The notes below the pieces were generated by a model. The model saw only the letters and a list, made by a program, of their open reading frames with translations, made no database searches and was not told the DNA's origin. The position numbers and the translations under genes are program-made. This document shows positions 2,926-20,916 of a DNA stretch of 37,358 nt, in pieces. Origin of the DNA: a virus. The first letter of the stretch is position 1; each line of letters begins with the position of its first letter. Where the stretch lies: UHGV virus genome UHGV-0063828; one strand, 5' to 3'.

Positions 2926-3108
2926 TTACCACACCTCTGCGGTAATCTTTACTTTAATGTCATACTTCTTTAAGAGTTTGTGGAAGGTTGATTGATCAAT
3001 ACCTTCACCTTTAAACCATTCACCCATCACTACATCAGGTGTCAGTTCAAAATAACGCTTTGCCATTTCTAAAACGATTTCGCGAGTGAACTTAACAGGT
3101 CGTGCCAT
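2926..3108 (-). CDS. Small HTH-type DNA-binding protein (60 aa), candidate regulator
   Basis: Strong AGGAGGA SD before ATG; borders the large repeat-rich non-coding region and is divergent from the rightward early genes. Confidence 0.5.
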   Translation of the reverse strand: MARPVKFTREIVLEMAKRYFELTPDVVMGEWFKGEGIDQSTFHKLLKKYDIKVKITAEVW

Positions 3109-3626
3109 CTCGAATCCTCCTAAATCTGGATTAATGATTTCTTAAAAAAGAGCGTTAACCGCTCACTATTATTTATATGGGGATTGTATTTTATTTTTCA
3201 ACCCCTCACATTTATCTCTTATATATGTATTTATAACAGAGATATGTTAAAATGTTATTCAGATGTTATCAGGCGTGTTAAATGTGTTAAACCACAGCAC
3301 GAATTGCTAAAGCGAAGAACACGATTTAACCAAATTGATGTTTATTCAATCAATTTAGAAAAAGGCATAGCACTTTTTGCTAAAGCGGTGAGCATTAATT
3401 GAGCTATGAATTGTAAAGATTTGTTACAAGATTTTCTCTCAGATCCAAATCTTCACAGACATATAACAATTTAACACGGTGATAACAATAGGAAGGAAAA
3501 TCGGTAAATTTTCACTTTCAATACAAATATTATACCACATTTTTCTCGAATTGTCAAGTATAGCACCAAACCTACATAGTGTCAAGAAAGGACTTTCAAA
3601 CCTACACTAGCCCTACACTATGAAAA

Positions 3627-7350: not shown

Positions 7351-9258
7351 ATGAAACTGATTTCTAATAAGGCAAAATTAAAAAAGATTCTTAAAAATGC
7401 AGCCAAATATATTACGCCACCGCCTAAGCTCCTTCCTTCTGAATGGTGCGAAGCGAATCTAACGCTAGTCGATGGTCCTCGTGCTGGGGATAAAGTTAAA
7501 TTACTGTCATTTCAGAAAGGCATGATTGATGCTCCTTTCCTTGAGAAGAAAAAGAAGTACGTTTTTTGTACGAGTGCGCAGATCGGAAAGACGACCATCA
7601 TGTCAGGGATCATGTTTAACCAGATGGCAAACGATCCGTGCAATATCATTATCGGGCAAAGTACCGCTAAAGAAGTGGCTATGTACTTGAATACTAAGAT
7701 CCGTCCTTCTATTGAAGCATGTCCGGCATTACAGGAAGTGGTAACAGATAAGAATGATCGTAATGCGGTAAACAACAATAACCAGATTCAGCTAAAAACA
7801 AACCATTTCCTTTACATGGTTTCTTTGACCAGTCCTTCAAGTTTGCGTGGGCGTACTGCCAAGTTAGGGATTGTAGACGAATGCGACGCAGCAACAATCA
7901 CCGAAGAAGGTTGTCCGGTGGCACTAACTGCAAACCGTTTAACTACCTTTGGTGATGAAGCTCGATTGATTGTTTCTAGTACCCCAACCAATAAGCTGGG
8001 AATCATTAACCAGCAATGGTTATCAAGTGATATGCGTATGTTTTTTGTTCCGTGTCCTCATTGCGGGGAACACCAGGTGATCGAGTGGGAAAACGTTCAA
8101 TTTGAATGGCGTAACATCGATGGTAAGAACTTACCCGATCCTGATACCGCTCGTTATATTTGCCCCCACTGTAAGAACGCATGGACCGAAGGGGAACGAA
8201 TCAGGGCAGTAGCACAAGGCGAGTGGAGAGCAACCCGTGAAAGTGAGGTAGCAGGATTCTGGATCAGCCGTCTGTATTCACCTTTCAGCACGATCCGCGC
8301 TTGTGTGGTTGATTTTAGTCATGCGTGGCAATCCTTTGATTTACAATCATTTTATAACACCGTGTTAGGCAAGGTATACGACGATCAGGACACGGCAGTA
8401 GAAGCAAATGAACTGGAACAACTCAAAACAGATGTTTCTATCGAGAATATCCCTGATGACGTAATTTTCTTGTGCTCAGGAATTGACCAGCAATTGGACC
8501 GCGCAGAATCTACCATCTTAGGTGTAGCGAAAGATAAGGTTTACATTCTGGATCACCGCAGCTTTTACGATCATAACTGTGAACGATACGAATCACCTGT
8601 TTGGGATCGTCTGGTTAACTTCAAGAAAACCAAATTCTATAACGTTAATGGTGAACGTGTGCCAATGCTCGCCAGCTTCCTTGATACATCGAACGGTCGA
8701 TTCACTCAAGCCGGATACCGTATTTGCGGCAAGTGGAAGAACCTACACGCTATCAAAGGTAGTTCATCTGGTAATGCTCCAGTGATTCCGGTTAAACCTA
8801 CCCGCACAGGTGGTCATGAATTGCTTATGTTGGGTGTTAACGTTGGGAAATCTGCTGTTCGTGAAATGTTGGTTAGAAACCTGAAAGACAATCCTCACAT
8901 TGGCTTAGAAATATCAGAAACCGTTCCTGATGATTATCTCGATCAGCTTTTGAGTGAATCCATCAAGCGTACTACTACTGGCGTGCGTTGGGTGAAAAAT
9001 CCAGGTAGTACCCGAAACGAGGCTCTCGACTGTCTGGTTTATAGCTATGCTGCTTCTCGCTACGTCCTTTCAAAAATGTCATGGGATAAACTCATTGCAA
9101 TGAAAGACAGCTTAAACCGTGTTGTCGAAGAATCCGTAAAAGCTCCTGAAACGCAATCTGACGAGCAAATCGAAGAAACTAAGCCAATCACACGACCGCA
9201 ACGTCAAAACATCGCCAGACGCCCAAATAGAGGCCGTAGCTGGGTAACATCGTTCTAA
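7351..9258 (+). CDS. Terminase large subunit, lambda gpA family
   Basis: P-loop region [10 protein letters not shown]; zinc-ribbon-like CPHCGEHQ...CPHC; GIDQQLDR and RNEALDC motifs as recalled from lambda gpA. Confidence 0.9.
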
Positions 9259-11392: not shown

Positions 11393-13402
11393 ATGCTTAA
11401 ATTTCGCCGCGATCTTAACAGTTACGGTGGAGTTATTAACGAAGGGCATAACGATCAATACGAATTTGAAATTGCTTTCTCCAGTACCCAGCCTTACCAG
11501 CGCCAATTCTGGGATGAGCAAAATCAAGAAATGGTGGTATTAGATGAAATTCTGGTACATACACCGGAAGCGGTTGATCTGTCTCGTCTGAATAATAACG
11601 CTCCGTTGCTGTTCAATCATAATTTCGATAATCACATTGGTGTAGTCTGCGACGCTCGAATCGATGCGGATAACGTAGGTCGTGCTCTGGTTAAATTCTC
11701 TAAGCATGGCACTTTGGCTAATGATATTCGCAATAAAGTCATTGAAGGTACGATGGAAAAAATTTCTGTCGGTTATGACATTAAAGAATATCACATCGAC
11801 TACACCAAAGGACAATTGATTGTTACTAAGTGGGCACCCTATGAACTCTCATTTGTCACCGTTCCCGCAGACGATACGGTCGGTTTAAATCGCTCTCTAA
11901 ATACTATCACAGTTAATTTGGAGGCTAAACGCGATATGACTAAAGAACAAATCGAAGAAATCAAAGAAGAACAAGAATCCGCTCAGGTTGAAGAAACTCC
12001 GGTAGAAGAAAATAAAGAACCGGAAGTTGAAGAAACTCAAGAGCGCCAAGTTGAAGAGAATAAAGAAAATGAAAATCTCGAAGACGGAAAAGACGCTGAA
12101 CATCCTGAAAGTGTTGATGATGATAGTTCAACTGTTCGGGAAACAGAAGAAGTAAAAGAAGAACGTGAAGCCGCTCCGGTTGAAGAAGAAAAAACCGAAG
12201 AAGTGGCTGAACGTTCCGAAGAAGACGAATTAGAAATTCGCGAAATTGCACGCGAACTAAATATTGATGACTCTGAATTAGCACGCGCATTGGCAATTAA
12301 AGACATGACGCCGGAAGCATTCCGCACTAAGGCACTAAATAACATTACCAATGCTCAACGTAATAACGAACAAATTAAGGACTCTAAAATGGAAAAAACT
12401 TTCGATCTTAATAACGTAATCCGCTCCCTGGTAGATGGCGACGTGCTCGGCGCTCATGAAGCTGAATATTCCGCAATGGCTGCTACTGCAACTATGCAGC
12501 GTGGTCGTGCTGCTCGCGGTGGCTCTGTATTCGTTCCTGCTGCTGCTATGCGTGCTGCTTCCGAAGGTAACACCAAAGCTACTCTGACTGCTGTTACTGA
12601 TGAAAAACTGCTGACTGAATCCTACATCGAAATGCTGCTTCCTGCTTCGTGTCTGGGTCGTCTGGGCGTGACCGTCCTGTCTGGTCTGAATAGCCCGATC
12701 GCTGTTCCGAAAATGACTGCTTCCAGCGTTGATGCATTTGGTTTTGTTGATGAAAACGGTGCTGCACCGGAAAGCAAAGCTGAATTTTCGAACGTGAAAA
12801 TGGCTCCGAAAACTTTTGCTGGTGGCAACCCGATCAGCCGTCAGTCTCTGAAAACTGTTCCGAATATTGCTACCCTGATCACTGATCATATTAACAAAGC
12901 TGTTCGCATCAAACTGGAACAACTGATTCTGTCTGACAAAGATAATACTCGCGGTCCGGCTGGTCTGGTTAAACAACTGGTAGATGGTGGTCGCGTTGCT
13001 AAGAAAACCGCTTTCAGCTACAAAGACCTGTTGAAAGAGATTGCCGCATTGACCGACGCTGGCGTTCCTGCTCAGGCGATCAAGTTCGCTATGAGTGGTG
13101 CAACTGCTGCTGAACTGGAATCTACCCCGAAATCTGATCGTGGTGACGCTCAAGGCTTCATTATGGAAAACGGCAAAATTGCTGGTTATGAAGTAGTTAC
13201 TTCTGGCGTTATTCCGGCAGATACGATCGTTCTGGGCGATTTCAGCGGCATTATCGTTGGGGAATGGGGAGGTCTTGAGCTAGATCTGGACGATTCGACG
13301 TACCGTGCCCAGTCGGCGATCGTGCCTCGTGTATGGCTGGATTTGGACTACGTTGTAGCACAGCCGGAAGCTCTGAAAGTTCTGAAAATTGGCGAAGAGT
13401 GA
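11393..13402 (+). CDS. Fused prohead protease / scaffold-like acidic linker / HK97-fold major capsid protein
   Basis: N-terminal ~180 aa prohead-protease-like; Glu/Lys-rich acidic middle; C-terminal ~337 aa capsid-like with strongly optimised codons; in-frame internal ATGs with SD at 11936 and 12389. Confidence 0.8.
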   Translation: MLKFRRDLNSYGGVINEGHNDQYEFEIAFSSTQPYQRQFWDEQNQEMVVLDEILVHTPEAVDLSRLNNNAPLLFNHNFDNHIGVVCDARIDADNVGRALVKFSKHGTLANDIRNKVIEGTMEKISVGYDIKEYHIDYTKGQLIVTKWAPYELSFVTVPADDTVGLNRSLNTITVNLEAKRDMTKEQIEEIKEEQESAQVEETPVEENKEPEVEETQERQVEENKENENLEDGKDAEHPESVDDDSSTVRETEEVKEEREAAPVEEEKTEEVAERSEEDELEIREIARELNIDDSELARALAIKDMTPEAFRTKALNNITNAQRNNEQIKDSKMEKTFDLNNVIRSLVDGDVLGAHEAEYSAMAATATMQRGRAARGGSVFVPAAAMRAASEGNTKATLTAVTDEKLLTESYIEMLLPASCLGRLGVTVLSGLNSPIAVPKMTASSVDAFGFVDENGAAPESKAEFSNVKMAPKTFAGGNPISRQSLKTVPNIATLITDHINKAVRIKLEQLILSDKDNTRGPAGLVKQLVDGGRVAKKTAFSYKDLLKEIAALTDAGVPAQAIKFAMSGATAAELESTPKSDRGDAQGFIMENGKIAGYEVVTSGVIPADTIVLGDFSGIIVGEWGGLELDLDDSTYRAQSAIVPRVWLDLDYVVAQPEALKVLKIGEE

Positions 13403-13493
13403 AATAACGAAGAATTGCCGGAAGAAATTCCGGTAGTTACGGCGAAAGCCACAGCTAAAAAGGTGGGACGTCCACCGAAAGCAAAATAATAAT

Positions 13494-13522
13494 TAGCCCT
13501 GCCTAACGGTGGGGCTTTTTTG
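13494..13522 (+). terminator. Intrinsic terminator after capsid gene
   Basis: AGCCCTGCC-TAAC-GGTGGGGCT hairpin with wobble pairs followed by TTTTTT. Confidence 0.6.
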
Positions 13523-13551
13523 TATGTAAATACTCCATAAAGGGGGTAACT

Positions 13552-13842
13552 ATGTTCAAATTATCAGAATCACAATTATCAAGAATGTTCCGAAGTGCTC
13601 CTGTATTTTCGGTGGAAGGTGGTAAATCAATTCGTGCTTATCATGAAATTACTACTACCGACGAACAAGGGGTAATGACAGAGACAGAATTTTTATTTTG
13701 TCGTGAGGGAGACTTAAAGCAGGGTGATATTGTCATTGTAGAAAATCAGCGTTTCAAAGTTCAATACGTTAAGCGCAATGGTGACAATACAACTGATTGC
13801 TTTATCACTCTGGCAGGGGGTACACATGCTCGCTACCGTTAA
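13552..13842 (+). CDS. Putative head-tail connector / head completion protein (96 aa)
   Basis: AAGGGGG SD; position immediately after capsid gene and terminator. Confidence 0.45.
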   Translation: MFKLSESQLSRMFRSAPVFSVEGGKSIRAYHEITTTDEQGVMTETEFLFCREGDLKQGDIVIVENQRFKVQYVKRNGDNTTDCFITLAGGTHARYR

Positions 13843-14248
13843 TAATATGCCGAGACTGAAAATCAAACGCGCCTTGCAAGATATTATCGAACAAGATTTA
13901 GGTCTGGCTTTAAACGTAGAACAAACTCAGCAAGGCTTTAGTGATGATGTGGTTTGTTGGATCACCGGAATGAATGAGACTTACACTAGGGTCCGTGGTG
14001 GTAATGCAATGCAAGCTGAATGCGTTATCGAAATGCAATTGTATTCTCAGATTCATGAAACCAAAATTCATGAGGGTATTTGCCAGATAATCCAGATTCA
14101 GCCGGATAACCCACGTTTTAAAGATTTGGGCTTCGCTATTTCAGATATCACTCCAGTAGCTTCTAATACCGATTATGACGATGATTCTAGTGATGGGGGT
14201 ATCGTTGGGACACTTAGCCTTAAATTTTCTTATCTAGCGCGTTTTTAA
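13826..14248 (+). CDS. Putative head-tail connector protein (141 aa)
   Basis: Start placed at ATG 13826 with GGGGG SD, overlapping the previous gene end; positional inference only. Confidence 0.4.
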   Translation: MLATVNNMPRLKIKRALQDIIEQDLGLALNVEQTQQGFSDDVVCWITGMNETYTRVRGGNAMQAECVIEMQLYSQIHETKIHEGICQIIQIQPDNPRFKDLGFAISDITPVASNTDYDDDSSDGGIVGTLSLKFSYLARF

Positions 14249-15164: not shown

Positions 15165-18100
15165 ATGCAGTCGATCCAATTTAAACGAACAAATGTTTCT
15201 GGCAAAAAACCAACGCCGGAACAATTACAGGTCGGTGAGGTAGCAATCAACCTTAAAGACCATGTTATTTTTACCAAAGACCGAGATCATGAAGTAGTTC
15301 AAATCTCTGTTTCTCCTGAAACTCACGCGGCACTAGAATCTAAAGTTGATGCTAACAAACAAGAACTGGATAGCACAATTGCAGTAAATGACCGCAATAT
15401 TCACGCTAAAGTAGATGAAATTAAACAAACTACTGATGCAACCATCGCAGCAAATCACGCAGAAATTAACAATAAAGTTGATGTAATTAAACGCGAAACC
15501 GACGCGACAATCGAGGCCAATAAAAATAAAGCTGCTTCCGATCTTGCTGGTGTTAAAGCTGAATTGTCGGATACCATCAACGCTAATAAAAATGCGGCTG
15601 CTGTAGCAACTCAGGAACTGGACACCCGCATCAATAAAAAAGTTGATGATATTAAATCCCGTACCGATGCAACCATCGCAAGCAATGACAAAGCAATCAA
15701 TGACAAAGTTGATTTGATTAAGGCAGAAACTGACCGCACTATCGCAGCAAATAAAGTCTATGCGGAAAATCAGTTAACTGACACCTACAATAACCTTACT
15801 GGTGTGATTGCAGCCAATAAGCAAGAGGCAGCGGATAACGTCGCGGCATTAACCCGTGATGTTGAAGCCAAAAATACCGCAATTCATAGCAAAGTTGACA
15901 ATAACAAGTCTTACACTGATTCTGAATTGGCACGTTTAGAAAGCCGTATTGATGCAGCCGATGGATCGAGTGATGGCAAGTACATCAAAAAGCACGTAAA
16001 CACTTACACTGATGGCTATTTGCTATCTAAGACCGCAAACTATTTTGATGATCCGGGTGCGCGTAATCTTGATTATTTTGGTGCATTCCGCATGAATGAC
16101 CTGGCGGGTCATATTGCAATGATCTTGCATGTTCCGCATCCATCTGGTGTTAATCATGCTCGTGGCTTTGAGTTCACTTATGGGTCCAATCCACATGCTA
16201 CTGTAAGAACATACGGCTATGATGAATTGGGTCATTTGGCATATTCTCACCGCATGTATCATGAAGGCGATAAACCAACTCCGGCTGAAATTGGCGCATA
16301 TTCGAAAGCAGAAATTGACCGGATGTTCCAGAAGACCATCAACTTTGGTGTAGAAACTGGATGGTTTAAAATTGCTACCGCCTTTATTCCGCAAAATGAT
16401 GGACGTAGCTTGAAAATTAGATTGATTGGTGGAAATGGGTGGAACGTAGGCCAAACTGGACAATGTAATATTATTGAACTTGTTATAAGGACTAGCAACG
16501 GTTCGCCTAAAGGAATTAACTTTGTTGCGTATCATCATGTTTCTGGTTACGAGAATCAATTTTGTGCCATTAATACAAGTGATGACACTTATGATATCTA
16601 TGCATATTACTTCGAATTTACTAATATGGTAATGGCTGAATATCAAGCGTCTACCGGTGTTAATTTAACTGTACTTGATCGACCTGAATATGTAGGCGAA
16701 AAACCTGTAGCTGATCATATCTATGATGCATATACAATACACTCCTTTAACAGTTTCAGTAACCGTGGAACGTTAAATTTTGCTGGAAACCATCAAGGTC
16801 AATATGATATTGAGCATTTGAACGAACAACCGACAAATGCTAAGAAAATGCTGCGTCGCTTCCGTAGTTCTGCTCCTGCCACTATCTGGCACGAAAGTGT
16901 TGATGACCAAAATTATCGTCTTGCTACTGGATATAGCGATGTAAACCCACAATTATTGCTTTCTGCTGTAACCGGGTTACATGTCAAGAGATTAACGTTG
17001 GATGGTGGTGTCACTGGAAATTCTGGTATTGATATTCGTCGAGGACCAAACGAATCAAGCCATTTTAATTTTATGGATTATCGCACTGGTCAAGATGTTC
17101 GTAATGGCTGGTTTGGCTTCGGTGATGGTCAGACCAAAGATTTTATTTGGTGGAACGATAACGGTCAAAACTCGATAAACTTGATTGAAAACGGTGAATT
17201 GCATATTACTGGCGGTAAAGGCCAGAAAATTGTAATGAATAGCGAAGTTGCATTATCTGAAAATGCTCGTTTGGCTGTCAAAGGCGGTAACTATGGCTTA
17301 ATTTTTAGAAATGATGGATCTGACTTCCATATTCTCACCACAGGTCTCGGTGATTCCTTTGGACCGTGGAATACTCGTAGACCATTCAGCTATAATTTTG
17401 CGGATGGTGGATTGGATCTAGGTGGTACTGAAACCGCTCGTTGTTTGCACCTGGGAATTGATGGTAGCACTCGTCTCGAAGACAACCTTTTATTTAAATC
17501 TGGTTCTCGTCAATCTATGGACTATATGGAACTCGTCCATTGGGGTAACAGTAATACAGGACGCAACAACGTTTTGAGTATGCGGGATTCCAAAGGATTT
17601 TTAGCCGAATTTGAACGCACCGGAAACAATAGCATTAAAACTAGATTCTTTGGTGAAACCTTCACTGACGGTACATTATACCTAAATCAGATGAATAATA
17701 GCTCTGAACGATTCTCTATCAACAATTGGGGAAATTCAGAAGTTGGACGCGCGGCAGTAATGGAAATCGGTGATTCCAAAGGTTATCACTTCTATACGGA
17801 ACGTAGAACAGATAACAGTTTGGCGTTTGATGTTGCTGGCGCTTTTACTGTGCATGGACCTAACGGAATAACCATCAAAAACTCAGCGGGTGCACGCCAT
17901 ATCTGGTTTAGAGATGATAGCGATGCAGAAAAGGCTGTTATCTGGGCTACAGATGATGGTCTTTTACATATTCGCAATAACTACGGTGGACATTTTAGTC
18001 ATCACTTCCAGGGTGCAATGATTAAAGTGGGAGAGCGTGTTCCTTATGCCGCAGATCAAGGACTTATCCGTGGTGAGGTTTCTGGTGGTGCATATGTTGC

Positions 18101-18683
18101 ATGGAGAGACCGACCTGCTGGTTTGTTGGTTGACTGTCAACAAAGCGTTGATAGTGCTCATGCTATTTGGAAAGCGGTTGATTGGGGGCGTAACTACATC
18201 GCTGCTATGGACGTTCATTGTCCCGGTGATAGTAATAATACTGCGGCAGCGGTTCTTCATGTTCAGGGTGCTGATTATCAATTCCATGCAAGTGGAGAAT
18301 TTCATGCCACTGGTAACGGAAACTTTAACGATGTTTATATTCGTTCCGATCGTCGTCTGAAAATTAATGTTGAAGACTACGAAGAAAATGCGGTAGATAA
18401 GGTAAATAAACTCAAAGTTAAAACCTACGATAAAGTTAAATCACTTTCTGATCGCGAAGTCATCGCACATGAGATTGGTATTATCGCACAGGATTTACAA
18501 GAGGTATTACCGGAAGCTGTTAAAACCGCAAAAATTGGTGGTCTTGATAACCCAGAAGAAATTTTAACAATTTCAAACTCCGCAGTGAACGCGCTTTTAA
18601 TTAAAGCGGTCCAAGAAATGAGCGAAGAAAATAAACTTCTTCGTGAACGTCTTGCTGCTATTGAGGCTAAATTATTTGGTTAA
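15165..18683 (+). CDS. Side tail fibre with C-terminal intramolecular chaperone (peptidase S74-like) domain
   Basis: N-terminal periodic KVDxIKxxTDATIAxN repeats (4 copies); last ~112 aa SDRRLKINVEDYEENAVDK...LAAIEAKL resembles the self-cleaving chaperone of T5 L-shaped fibre and endosialidases. Confidence 0.85.
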   Translation: MQSIQFKRTNVSGKKPTPEQLQVGEVAINLKDHVIFTKDRDHEVVQISVSPETHAALESKVDANKQELDSTIAVNDRNIHAKVDEIKQTTDATIAANHAEINNKVDVIKRETDATIEANKNKAASDLAGVKAELSDTINANKNAAAVATQELDTRINKKVDDIKSRTDATIASNDKAINDKVDLIKAETDRTIAANKVYAENQLTDTYNNLTGVIAANKQEAADNVAALTRDVEAKNTAIHSKVDNNKSYTDSELARLESRIDAADGSSDGKYIKKHVNTYTDGYLLSKTANYFDDPGARNLDYFGAFRMNDLAGHIAMILHVPHPSGVNHARGFEFTYGSNPHATVRTYGYDELGHLAYSHRMYHEGDKPTPAEIGAYSKAEIDRMFQKTINFGVETGWFKIATAFIPQNDGRSLKIRLIGGNGWNVGQTGQCNIIELVIRTSNGSPKGINFVAYHHVSGYENQFCAINTSDDTYDIYAYYFEFTNMVMAEYQASTGVNLTVLDRPEYVGEKPVADHIYDAYTIHSFNSFSNRGTLNFAGNHQGQYDIEHLNEQPTNAKKMLRRFRSSAPATIWHESVDDQNYRLATGYSDVNPQLLLSAVTGLHVKRLTLDGGVTGNSGIDIRRGPNESSHFNFMDYRTGQDVRNGWFGFGDGQTKDFIWWNDNGQNSINLIENGELHITGGKGQKIVMNSEVALSENARLAVKGGNYGLIFRNDGSDFHILTTGLGDSFGPWNTRRPFSYNFADGGLDLGGTETARCLHLGIDGSTRLEDNLLFKSGSRQSMDYMELVHWGNSNTGRNNVLSMRDSKGFLAEFERTGNNSIKTRFFGETFTDGTLYLNQMNNSSERFSINNWGNSEVGRAAVMEIGDSKGYHFYTERRTDNSLAFDVAGAFTVHGPNGITIKNSAGARHIWFRDDSDAEKAVIWATDDGLLHIRNNYGGHFSHHFQGAMIKVGERVPYAADQGLIRGEVSGGAYVAWRDRPAGLLVDCQQSVDSAHAIWKAVDWGRNYIAAMDVHCPGDSNNTAAAVLHVQGADYQFHASGEFHATGNGNFNDVYIRSDRRLKINVEDYEENAVDKVNKLKVKTYDKVKSLSDREVIAHEIGIIAQDLQEVLPEAVKTAKIGGLDNPEEILTISNSAVNALLIKAVQEMSEENKLLRERLAAIEAKLFG

Positions 18684-20236: not shown

Positions 20237-20545
20237 ATGAATATTAATGAAATGTTAGCCGCACTCTCTCCGAAACGTGAATCTTTGACCATCGGTGGAT
20301 TTACTTTCTATGCTCGCCCTATGTCAGTAAAAGAATTTAACGAACATGTTTTCAATACCGATAAAGAAGATCGTGATGAACGTTCTATTCTTCGTTGTAT
20401 TGAAGATGAAGACGGTAAGCCGGTATTTGAATCTATGGAACAAGTTAAGGCACTGTATACTAACGTCCGCAGTGAATTAATCGGTTTGGTTGCTCAAGCA
20501 TCATTGATGCAAGATCCGGCAGTAATTGAAAACGAGGTAAAGTGA
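20237..20545 (+). CDS. Tail assembly chaperone (gpG-like position)
   Basis: AAGAGGAA SD; ~100 aa acidic protein between tail tube and tape measure. Confidence 0.6.
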   Translation: MNINEMLAALSPKRESLTIGGFTFYARPMSVKEFNEHVFNTDKEDRDERSILRCIEDEDGKPVFESMEQVKALYTNVRSELIGLVAQASLMQDPAVIENEVK

Positions 20546-20916
20546 ACCCGCTTCTGAATTTCTACTTTCGGCAAATGATGCGATCGGGGCTTAGTAAAGA
20601 TGAAATGGATAATATGCCAATCACTCTGTTTTGGAAATTATACATTTTCGACACCTACTTAGAACCACAAAGCCCCGCGTTTCATGATATGCAGAATGCG
20701 ATGTTGCAATATTCCATGTATATGACGTCGCAAGGAATGACACGCGAAACTGCACGTAAACTCAAGCCTAGCCAATTCCAATTAATTAGAGAAGAAAAAC
20801 TCTTTAAAACTAAAGAAGAACTGGAAGAAATTGCACGCAAGAAAGAAGAAGAACGTAAAGCGGCAATGATGAACATGTTCGATCCATCTTTGCTTGAGAA
20901 ACTCAGAAGCGGTTAA
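20542..20916 (+). CDS. Second tail assembly chaperone (gpT-like position)
   Basis: GTG start overlapping upstream stop (GTGA) with GAGG SD; in -1 frame relative to the upstream gene. Confidence 0.55.
   Translation: MNPLLNFYFRQMMRSGLSKDEMDNMPITLFWKLYIFDTYLEPQSPAFHDMQNAMLQYSMYMTSQGMTRETARKLKPSQFQLIREEKLFKTKEELEEIARKKEEERKAAMMNMFDPSLLEKLRSG

Follow-up and report, generated by a model that had tools for sequence, protein, structure and literature searches.

A probable readthrough extension beyond the UGA stop of the capsid gene in a lambda-like Escherichia coli prophage

Why does the capsid gene of a phage end in a UGA stop codon when the same frame runs on for another 28 sense codons and then closes at two consecutive TAA codons? 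The question is raised by UHGV-0063828, a virus genome of 37,358 nucleotides (nt; the whole stretch is hereafter termed the window) that represents a lambda-like siphovirus prophage with Escherichia coli as its host. The gene concerned encodes a fusion of prohead protease, acidic scaffold-like linker and HK97-fold major capsid protein, and the segment in question, termed here the extension, lies between its stop and an intrinsic transcription terminator (Table 1). The initial annotation of this DNA had judged the layout compatible with low-frequency UGA readthrough that yields a C-terminally extended capsid protein, an interpretation that our comparative evidence supports without proving it: judging from patterns of sequence conservation, we consider it probable that the segment is a selected readthrough extension that would give rise to a minor, C-terminally extended capsid subunit. 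The layout of 28 in-frame codons followed by TAA TAA was confirmed from the sequence (AAT AAC GAA GAA TTG CCG GAA GAA ATT CCG GTA GTT ACG GCG AAA GCC ACA GCT AAA AAG GTG GGA CGT CCA CCG AAA GCA AAA). A palindrome within it that had been noted as the 16-nt GGTGG-GACGTC-CCACC is in fact GGTGGGACGTCCACC, 15 nt long and one C shorter, with the arms GGTGG and CCACC placed around GACGT.

TAA ends 31 of the 35 open reading frames (ORFs) in the window, and the capsid gene, which is expected to be the most heavily translated gene of the phage, is one of the four that end in TGA. Tandem stops close six of the 35 ORFs, and the capsid gene has its own beyond the extension rather than at the TGA. The TGA followed by A is kept at the end of the capsid gene in all 49 relatives that were compared. 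Among 44 more distant capsid fusion homologs (29–47% identity), 43 end in TAA, mostly as TAA-T, and one in TGA-T, and the extension is absent from every one of them; the Salmonella relatives (47–51% identity) and loci L039-L041 also stop at TAA and carry no extension. An A or C at the +4 position reportedly makes for the weakest UGA signals, an observation ascribed to Poole et al. in 1995 and Engelberg-Kulka in 1981. UGA is the leakiest stop codon of E. coli, with readthrough at 10^-2 to 10^-3; it is decoded by Trp-tRNA(Trp) in competition with release factor 2 (RF2) and is shunned in highly expressed genes (PMC4989110, PMC10570021). The extent of this readthrough differs with temperature, cyclic AMP (cAMP) and the level of tRNA-Trp, as well as between individual cells (PMC10570021).

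The 49 relatives comprise 33 IMG/VR prophage contigs (83–97% capsid identity), 11 metagenome contigs and five complete E. coli genomes, and amount to about 27 distinct haplotypes; the 11 metagenome contigs were fetched by a pattern inside the capsid gene, upstream of the stop, so that this search was blind to the extension. Frame 0 stays open in all 49, and TAATAA closes it in every one whose sequence reaches that point (L032 has a triple stop, TAA TAA TAA), at extension lengths of 28, 42, 43, 44 or 45 codons. The initial annotation had pointed to frame conservation among homologous phages as a check, and we found neither a frameshift nor an internal stop in the extension of any relative, whereas the forward frames +1 and +2 contain stops in 17 of the 17 haplotypes checked. 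Across the approximately 27 haplotypes, the extension has taken up at least 46 substitutions and four insertions or deletions (indels) without acquiring a stop or a frame break. These four events, of 48, 3, 3 and 3 nt, are all multiples of three, whereas the roughly 60-nt non-coding spacer just downstream carries, in the same sequences, four indels of 1–2 nt (Fisher's exact test, p = 0.014). Matches to the end of the capsid gene and its downstream region occur in 54 of 5,426 complete E. coli genomes, with strain EC24 (NZ_CP182191) being 100% identical to the window across 13250–13600; ETEC1717 is another strain that carries the prophage. PGAP annotation of complete E. coli genomes ends the gene at the TGA and annotates none of the extension, and when GenBank phages were searched at the DNA level with the end of the capsid gene and the extension, nothing matched, so that no sequenced isolate has it. 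One prophage contig (L031/L076, IMGVR_UViG_2877285697_000006) has a frame break in the capsid domain, with an early stop and a tblastn match length that is not a multiple of three, although TGA-A, extension and TAATAA have all survived in it; the break may be a sequencing error or the mark of a decaying prophage.

An open stretch of 28 codons in one sequence is not by itself beyond chance, because shuffled segments often stay open (22–25% of trials for the short form and 8–10% for the long form); its significance comes from codon usage together with the relatives and the choice of stop codon. Judged by the codon frequencies of structural genes in this phage, the extension reaches in frame 0 a log-likelihood of +0.42 to +0.47 bits per codon, compared with 0.38 ± 0.20 for windows of 28–42 codons taken from real genes. 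Frames +1 and +2 score negative, as they also do in real genes, and the intergenic DNA of the window lies at −0.4 to −1.3 bits per codon in every frame. Dinucleotide shuffles score −0.4 ± 0.3 bits per codon and attain the observed score in no more than 2 of 10,000 cases (P ≤ 2e-4), or no more than 8 of 10,000 (P ≤ 8e-4) among those shuffles that stay open. The coding-like character first attributed to these codons thus holds good, frame 0 having the codon usage of the phage's real genes.

Conserved in the extension are the frame, both stop signals and a charge pattern, namely an acidic, Pro-rich first half followed by a basic, Lys/Ala-rich end. The basic tail with its GRP motif, as originally described, is present in the window, but it represents just one of the two or three types seen among relatives, with ...KKVGRPPKAK set against ...KKQRKTKE and ...KKERKTKAK. 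An AT-hook identity for the tail was considered but not confirmed. The first of these types alone resembles an AT-hook: KKVGRPPKAK scores 14.2–14.7 bits against the Pfam AT_hook profile PF02178 (E = 0.03–0.04), below the 17.4-bit cut-off, and the KKQRKTKE and KKERKTKAK types have no match to that profile at all.

Several observations weigh against selected readthrough. The relatives all belong to Escherichia or Shigella and lie within 83–97% capsid identity, so the haplotypes are not independent of one another. Amino acids in the extension are barely constrained, the ratio of nonsynonymous to synonymous polymorphism (pN/pS) being 0.74 there against 0.26 in the capsid domain, and its substitutions fall almost evenly on the three codon positions (10/14/15). 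New stops would arise from about 4.5% of the possible substitutions, so that about two were expected and none was seen, which is weak when taken alone (P ~0.12). This weak peptide constraint with a retained charge pattern fits a disordered tail, but it also fits a young relic. A protein database search with the capsid and the extension joined through a tryptophan gave no match spanning the extension, and hence no variant with a sense codon at the stop, and a search of a 5.8-billion-sequence protein database with the 45-amino-acid (aa) extension alone gave no candidate. The RNA, moreover, folds more stably than synonymous recodings of the same peptide, with z = −3.0 to −4.3 over five haplotypes and −3.6 for the first hairpin (HP1), when the same comparison on 40 windows of real genes gave 0.1 ± 1.0 and a minimum of −2.3; and the amino acid changes L>S, V>A and V>I are exactly those that preserve base pairs. 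Because the RNA is more structured than the peptide needs and the amino acid changes keep its pairs, some of the conservation is owed to the RNA. An RNA function is therefore real, either alongside translation or as a rival explanation to it.

Three hairpins are predicted between the UGA and the terminator (HP1, HP2 and HP3; Table 1). Relative to dinucleotide shuffles, the extension RNA folds with z = −4 to −6, and HP1 itself with z = −5.9. At the variable stem positions, pairing is kept in six of seven cases, two double compensatory changes among them: HP1 shows a compensatory U-A>C-G (L031) along with U.G>U-A and G.U>A-U, in L031 and L013, and HP3 shows a compensatory U-A>C-G in L014, L019 and L129. 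The sequence of HP2, GGCGAAAGCC, is nearly invariant among the relatives. In the long form, HP1 is replaced by a different, 8-base-pair (bp) hairpin, CUUCCCCC-GAUUU-GGGGGAAG, located 22 nt after the UGA within a larger closed domain, the start of which is again about 10 nt past the stop. The terminator is conserved in relatives from both E. coli and Salmonella and shows G.U>G-C changes.

Such an arrangement could also be explained as a structured 3' untranslated region (UTR) and nothing else, the 90–140 nt between stop and terminator serving as an mRNA-stabilizing hairpin array or as a 3'-UTR-derived small RNA (sRNA) while any translation is unselected noise. The stable, conserved hairpins that end at an intrinsic terminator are what such a region would look like, a feature that does not exclude translation, and the fold strength against both shuffles and recodings (with coding controls near zero), the maintained pairing and the weak peptide constraint all speak for it. 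Searched at E ≤ 10, Rfam returned sub-threshold, terminator-driven matches to terminator-containing sRNAs and leaders, which lean the same way, but no family at threshold and no selenocysteine insertion sequence (SECIS) or recoding element. A purely structural role, however, leaves unexplained why gene-like codon usage is limited to frame 0, why indels are multiples of three when those of the neighboring spacer are 1–2 nt, and why an invariant, weak TGA-A sits on the top-expressed gene of a TAA-using phage with an in-frame tandem TAA beyond it. The hairpins of the short and long variants are, furthermore, wholly different, leaving no single conserved RNA motif. We accordingly regard a 3' UTR without selected translation as unlikely.

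Less probable still is a decaying remnant, in which an ancestral, directly fused tail was cut off by a nonsense mutation to TGA and its codons have not yet eroded. Relatives with directly fused Lys/Ala/Pro-rich tails do exist, the codon usage, open frame and tandem stop would simply be inherited, and a pN/pS approaching 1 agrees with such a history. Decay is hard to reconcile, however, with so many substitutions and four indels having left the frame unbroken and stop-free while the adjacent spacer gained 1–2-nt indels, or with a TGA-A that in none of the 49 relatives was improved to TAA, the norm of phage and family. Since UGA-A on so abundant a protein leaks anyway, this explanation also shades into unselected readthrough.

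A separate peptide of 24–40 aa, made from an independent small ORF or by termination-reinitiation, is very improbable. In-frame TTG (13415) and GTG (13463) codons are available, and Escherichia phage DCP80 has, in the equivalent place, a UAAUG overlap before an ATG-started small ORF; but there is no conserved start codon or Shine-Dalgarno sequence, the TTG becomes TCG in L031 and lies in a short-form-specific stretch that is replaced in long variants, no such predicted protein occurs among the 5.8 billion sequences, and in no haplotype does the conserved frame depart from that of the capsid gene. E. coli possesses machinery for selenocysteine (Sec), the minimal E. coli SECIS has a spacing of 11 nt, and SelB needs GU loop bases and a bulged U in the hairpin. 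Decoding of the UGA as Sec by SelB, as a stable hairpin 10 nt downstream might suggest, can practically be dismissed, HP1 having a GAAA loop with neither the GU bases nor the bulged U, the long variants a different hairpin at another distance, and no SECIS or other Rfam family a match.

Two further candidates were rejected outright. A +1 or −1 frameshift at the stop is incompatible with the window, in which both frames close within 1–12 codons; the extension lies in frame 0 and is not one reached by frameshifting. Genome-wide reassignment of TGA is contradicted by large ORFs that are all intact under code 11, with the sole tRNA call being a doubtful tRNA-Gln(ttg). That candidate, reported by ARAGORN, is 91 nt long and lies on the minus strand at 14013–14103, within the ORF 13778–14248; it is probably a false positive, being unusually long and in a coding region, and no suppressor.

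The wider capsid family offers a context for a tail of this kind, as homologs that are 85–90% identical to one another differ in their C-terminal endings. Some carry tails fused directly, with no stop between, that end in ...GTPAEAKAAKQ, ...PAEAPAEAKAGK or ...GEAEAGETRKAK, and the directly fused tails of Salmonella relatives end in ...KAPAGRSK or ...VEASKAK. Other homologs have an early TAA together with a tail-like −1 ORF that stops just before the terminator. In L087 (~3020–3140), an in-phase, dnaX-type A_AAA_AAG is followed after a 6-nt spacer by a compound stem-loop (z = −4.0), and the −1 frame reads DGSLTDTGAQAAPVRKPRALKVTK, ending in ...APVRKPRALKVTK; L081 has a homologous −1 ORF (...NTGEQASPAKVKKPRALKVK) that differs by indels of 3 and 6 nt and by a compensatory change in the hairpin. 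The heptamer A_AAA_AAA in L039 and L109 leads to an ending ...KAKAKAETAE, which is longer by two KA repeats in L086 and L089, and DCP80 (L040, PQ671644.1, ~7760–7900) has a −1 ORF ending in ...PVKKSKSASG. From their sequence layout, these cassettes are probably unannotated −1 frameshift capsid extensions, and the pattern suggests that basic C-terminal tails rich in Ala, Lys and Pro have been attached repeatedly in this family, by fusion to every subunit or by recoding to a minority. Such a tendency would make it plausible that the E. coli clade has an in-frame version behind a leaky stop. A scan of GTDB genomes with the family alignment recovered two distant loci only, both without the extension, and a viral-contig scan seeded with L087 recovered no loci beyond those already found. 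The DCP80 record, PQ671644.1, is classed as a 141-kb member of the Straboviridae (T4-like), although it has a portal of lambda type and an HK97 protease-capsid fusion module; the assembly may be chimeric, or the record misclassified.

If the UGA is indeed read through, most ribosomes would terminate at UGA-A through RF2 and release the normal capsid subunit, while a small fraction, on the order of ~0.1–5%, would accept the near-cognate Trp-tRNA(Trp). These ribosomes would then translate the 28 codons (42–45 of them in the sister prophages) and terminate efficiently at UAA UAA, and the predicted peptide across the stop is IGEE-X-NNEELPEEIPVVTAK. The hairpins may modulate the process, and the extended subunits would presumably be assembled into virions. 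The nearest solved structure to the capsid protein is 8GTA, of roseophage R4C, a phage with a 36-kb genome and 415 subunits arranged as a T=7 capsid (PMC10276861). By analogy with R4C, readthrough of 0.5–3% would place about 2–12 tailed subunits among the ~415 of a T=7 head. The flexible tail is expected on the outside of the capsid, by analogy with T7 10B and Bxb1, and our best guess at its role is that of a low-copy, charged appendage that would bind charged surfaces, its dose following the UGA-readthrough physiology of the host. A readthrough ribosome halted at TAATAA could, in addition, sit over the 5' arm of the terminator stem, and readthrough might in this way influence, much as in attenuation, how far the head and tail genes downstream are transcribed.

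A bolder picture, which we put forward tentatively and regard as doubtful in its entirety, would join these elements. Direct fusion, −1 frameshifting and UGA readthrough would be three interchangeable routes to the tail, with recoding limiting it to a minority of subunits. Readthrough in the E. coli clade would be tuned by the covarying hairpin 10 nt past the UGA, acting as a non-SECIS stimulator of bacterial readthrough. Masking of the terminator would couple readthrough to downstream transcription, and virion composition to host physiology (tRNA-Trp, RF2, cAMP and temperature).

Readthrough at a capsid stop has a precedent in phage Q-beta (Qubevirus), in which the UGA of the coat gene is read by tRNA-Trp to give A1, a minor, C-terminally extended coat protein of the virion whose 196-aa folded extension is essential for infection. 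The two cases are alike in a capsid gene that ends in UGA followed by A, in an in-frame extension and in translation by E. coli, with few extended subunits expected; a leaky capsid stop and a downstream frame conserved as coding (in frame, indels and codon usage) are features of A1 that recur here. Q-beta, however, is a small single-stranded RNA phage with an unrelated coat fold, whereas the present extension belongs to a double-stranded DNA, lambda-like siphovirus with an HK97-fold capsid and is a low-complexity tail of 28–45 aa; the two share no sequence homology.

The C-terminal capsid extension of T7 10B is displayed on the virion surface. Capsid extensions made by recoding are on record for T7, T3, Lactobacillus phage A2, Listeria phages A118 and A500 (−1 frameshifting) and PSA (+1) (PMC5009743). 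In all of these (T7 10A/10B, T3, A2 gp5A/5B, A118, A500 and PSA), as would be the case here, one HK97-fold capsid gene gives two products, the minor one being C-terminally extended. The likeness reaches further in the relatives L087, L039/L109 and L081, which belong to the same capsid family and have slippery heptamers and/or −1 tails. The window differs from this class in that its extension is in frame and needs no slippery site, so that readthrough would take the place of frameshifting, and in that the extensions of T3 and A2 are immunoglobulin-like (Ig-like) domains whereas its own is a short charged tail. In mycobacteriophage Bxb1, the native C-terminal extension of the capsid protein (gp14) is dispensable and immunodominant, which points to surface exposure; replacement of the tail by foreign peptides is not tolerated, but 30 extra residues can be appended at the C terminus (PMC8704799). 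Bxb1 gp14 resembles the arrangement proposed for the window in having a C-terminal tail on an HK97-fold subunit, but carries it on every subunit and without recoding.

For the hairpin, the closest parallels lie in alphaviruses and plant viruses, where a stem-loop 3' of a leaky UGA stimulates readthrough (PMC3159437). The likeness consists of a leaky UGA with a stable, phylogenetically supported stem-loop within about 8–10 nt, which would place the hairpin close to the mRNA entry channel. Those viruses, unlike this phage, use eukaryotic ribosomes and eRF1, and the long variants described here have their main hairpin 22 nt downstream. We know of no readthrough-stimulating hairpin other than SECIS that is established for bacterial ribosomes. 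The locus would be a natural test case for the modulation of termination on bacterial ribosomes by mRNA hairpins.

The open-access literature that we searched, including a review of recoding (PMC5009743), makes no mention of a readthrough-derived capsid extension in a tailed phage. If confirmed, the present case would, within that literature, be the first capsid extension of a tailed double-stranded DNA phage that arises through stop-codon readthrough and not frameshifting, and it would reside in a tractable E. coli prophage. Three routes to similar Lys/Ala/Pro-rich tails in one capsid family would show that recoding solutions swap readily, and the host dependence of UGA readthrough suggests that the composition of the virion surface could follow host physiology. 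Annotation pipelines overlook the extension entirely, and the arrangement would offer an existing site for low-copy display on a capsid of HK97 type.

Table 1. Features at and beyond the end of the capsid gene in the window
Feature	Position	Strand	Remarks and basis
Prohead protease – acidic scaffold-like linker – HK97-fold major capsid protein fusion ORF	11393..13399 coding, TGA ends 13402	+	669 aa; ORF list, Pfam
Putative leaky stop, UGA with A at +4	13400..13403	+	Glu or Asp codon before; sequence
Putative readthrough extension, NNEELPEEIPVVTAKATAKKVGRPPKAK, 28 codons	13403..13486	+	Acidic/Pro-rich first half, Lys/Ala-rich basic tail
HP1 hairpin, 11-bp stem AAUUGCCGGAA / UUCCGGUAGUU, GAAA loop	13413..13438	+	Starts 10 nt after UGA; minimum free energy fold
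HP2 small hairpin, GGC-GAAA-GCC	13441..13450	+	Predicted in short and long variants
HP3 hairpin/palindrome, GGUGG-GACGU-CCACC, encodes V-G-R-P-P	13462..13476	+	GRPPKAK tail type only; fold
Tandem in-frame stops, TAA TAA	13487..13492	+	2 nt before terminator stem
Intrinsic terminator, 9-bp stem AGCCCTGCC/GGTGGGGCT, loop TAAC, T-run	13495..13521 (stem 13495-13516)	+	Terminator scan; ends capsid transcript

Around the terminator, the stretch 13493–13551, which comprises the terminator, the spacer and a ribosome-binding region (TTAGCC...GGCTTTTTT.T.TGTAAATACTCC), is nearly invariant in the E. coli relatives. It is still recognizable in Salmonella prophages (L038 and L043; capsid ~50% identical), being conserved above the surrounding coding sequence. 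An alignment with the Salmonella prophages made for the origin of the tail showed the terminator and spacer to be homologous, while the tails were not convincingly alignable. The double stop of the extension falls 2–5 nt from the terminator stem, and relatives without the extension (L038, L043 and L082) stop 15–18 nt upstream of the homologous terminator. On the minus strand (13462–13481), the palindrome reads GGTGGACGTCCCACC and runs into TTTTT, an arrangement scored as a weak intrinsic terminator, which could halt antisense transcription entering the capsid gene.

Beyond the capsid gene, the window encodes a gpA-type large terminase, a lambda-family portal, a lambda-like tail tube protein, a G/T tail chaperone pair, a tape measure protein and a gpJ-like tip protein, and its closest protein relatives carry E. 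coli, Shigella and E. albertii annotations. In the capsid fusion protein, Pfam places Peptidase_S78 at residues 40–162 and Phage_capsid at residues 412–666; the protein corresponds to the PHROG 617 major head protein and partially matches the NCBIfam entry 'prohead protease/major capsid protein fusion'. The head/connector module also contains, upstream of the tail tube gene, an 1172-aa fiber gene (15165–18683), in the product of which a coiled-coil N-terminal part is joined by a Gp34_trimer domain and a Peptidase_S74 intramolecular chaperone; the EC24 homolog is annotated by PGAP as 'phage head spike fiber domain-containing protein'. Finally, the two ORFs of the tail assembly chaperone pair (20237–20916, with matches to Phage_TAC_13 and Phage_tail_T) overlap at GGTAAAGTGAACC, and the first of them ends in TGA-A. 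Lambda-like phages typically have this G/GT layout for −1 frameshifting, so that the phage probably uses a second recoding event.

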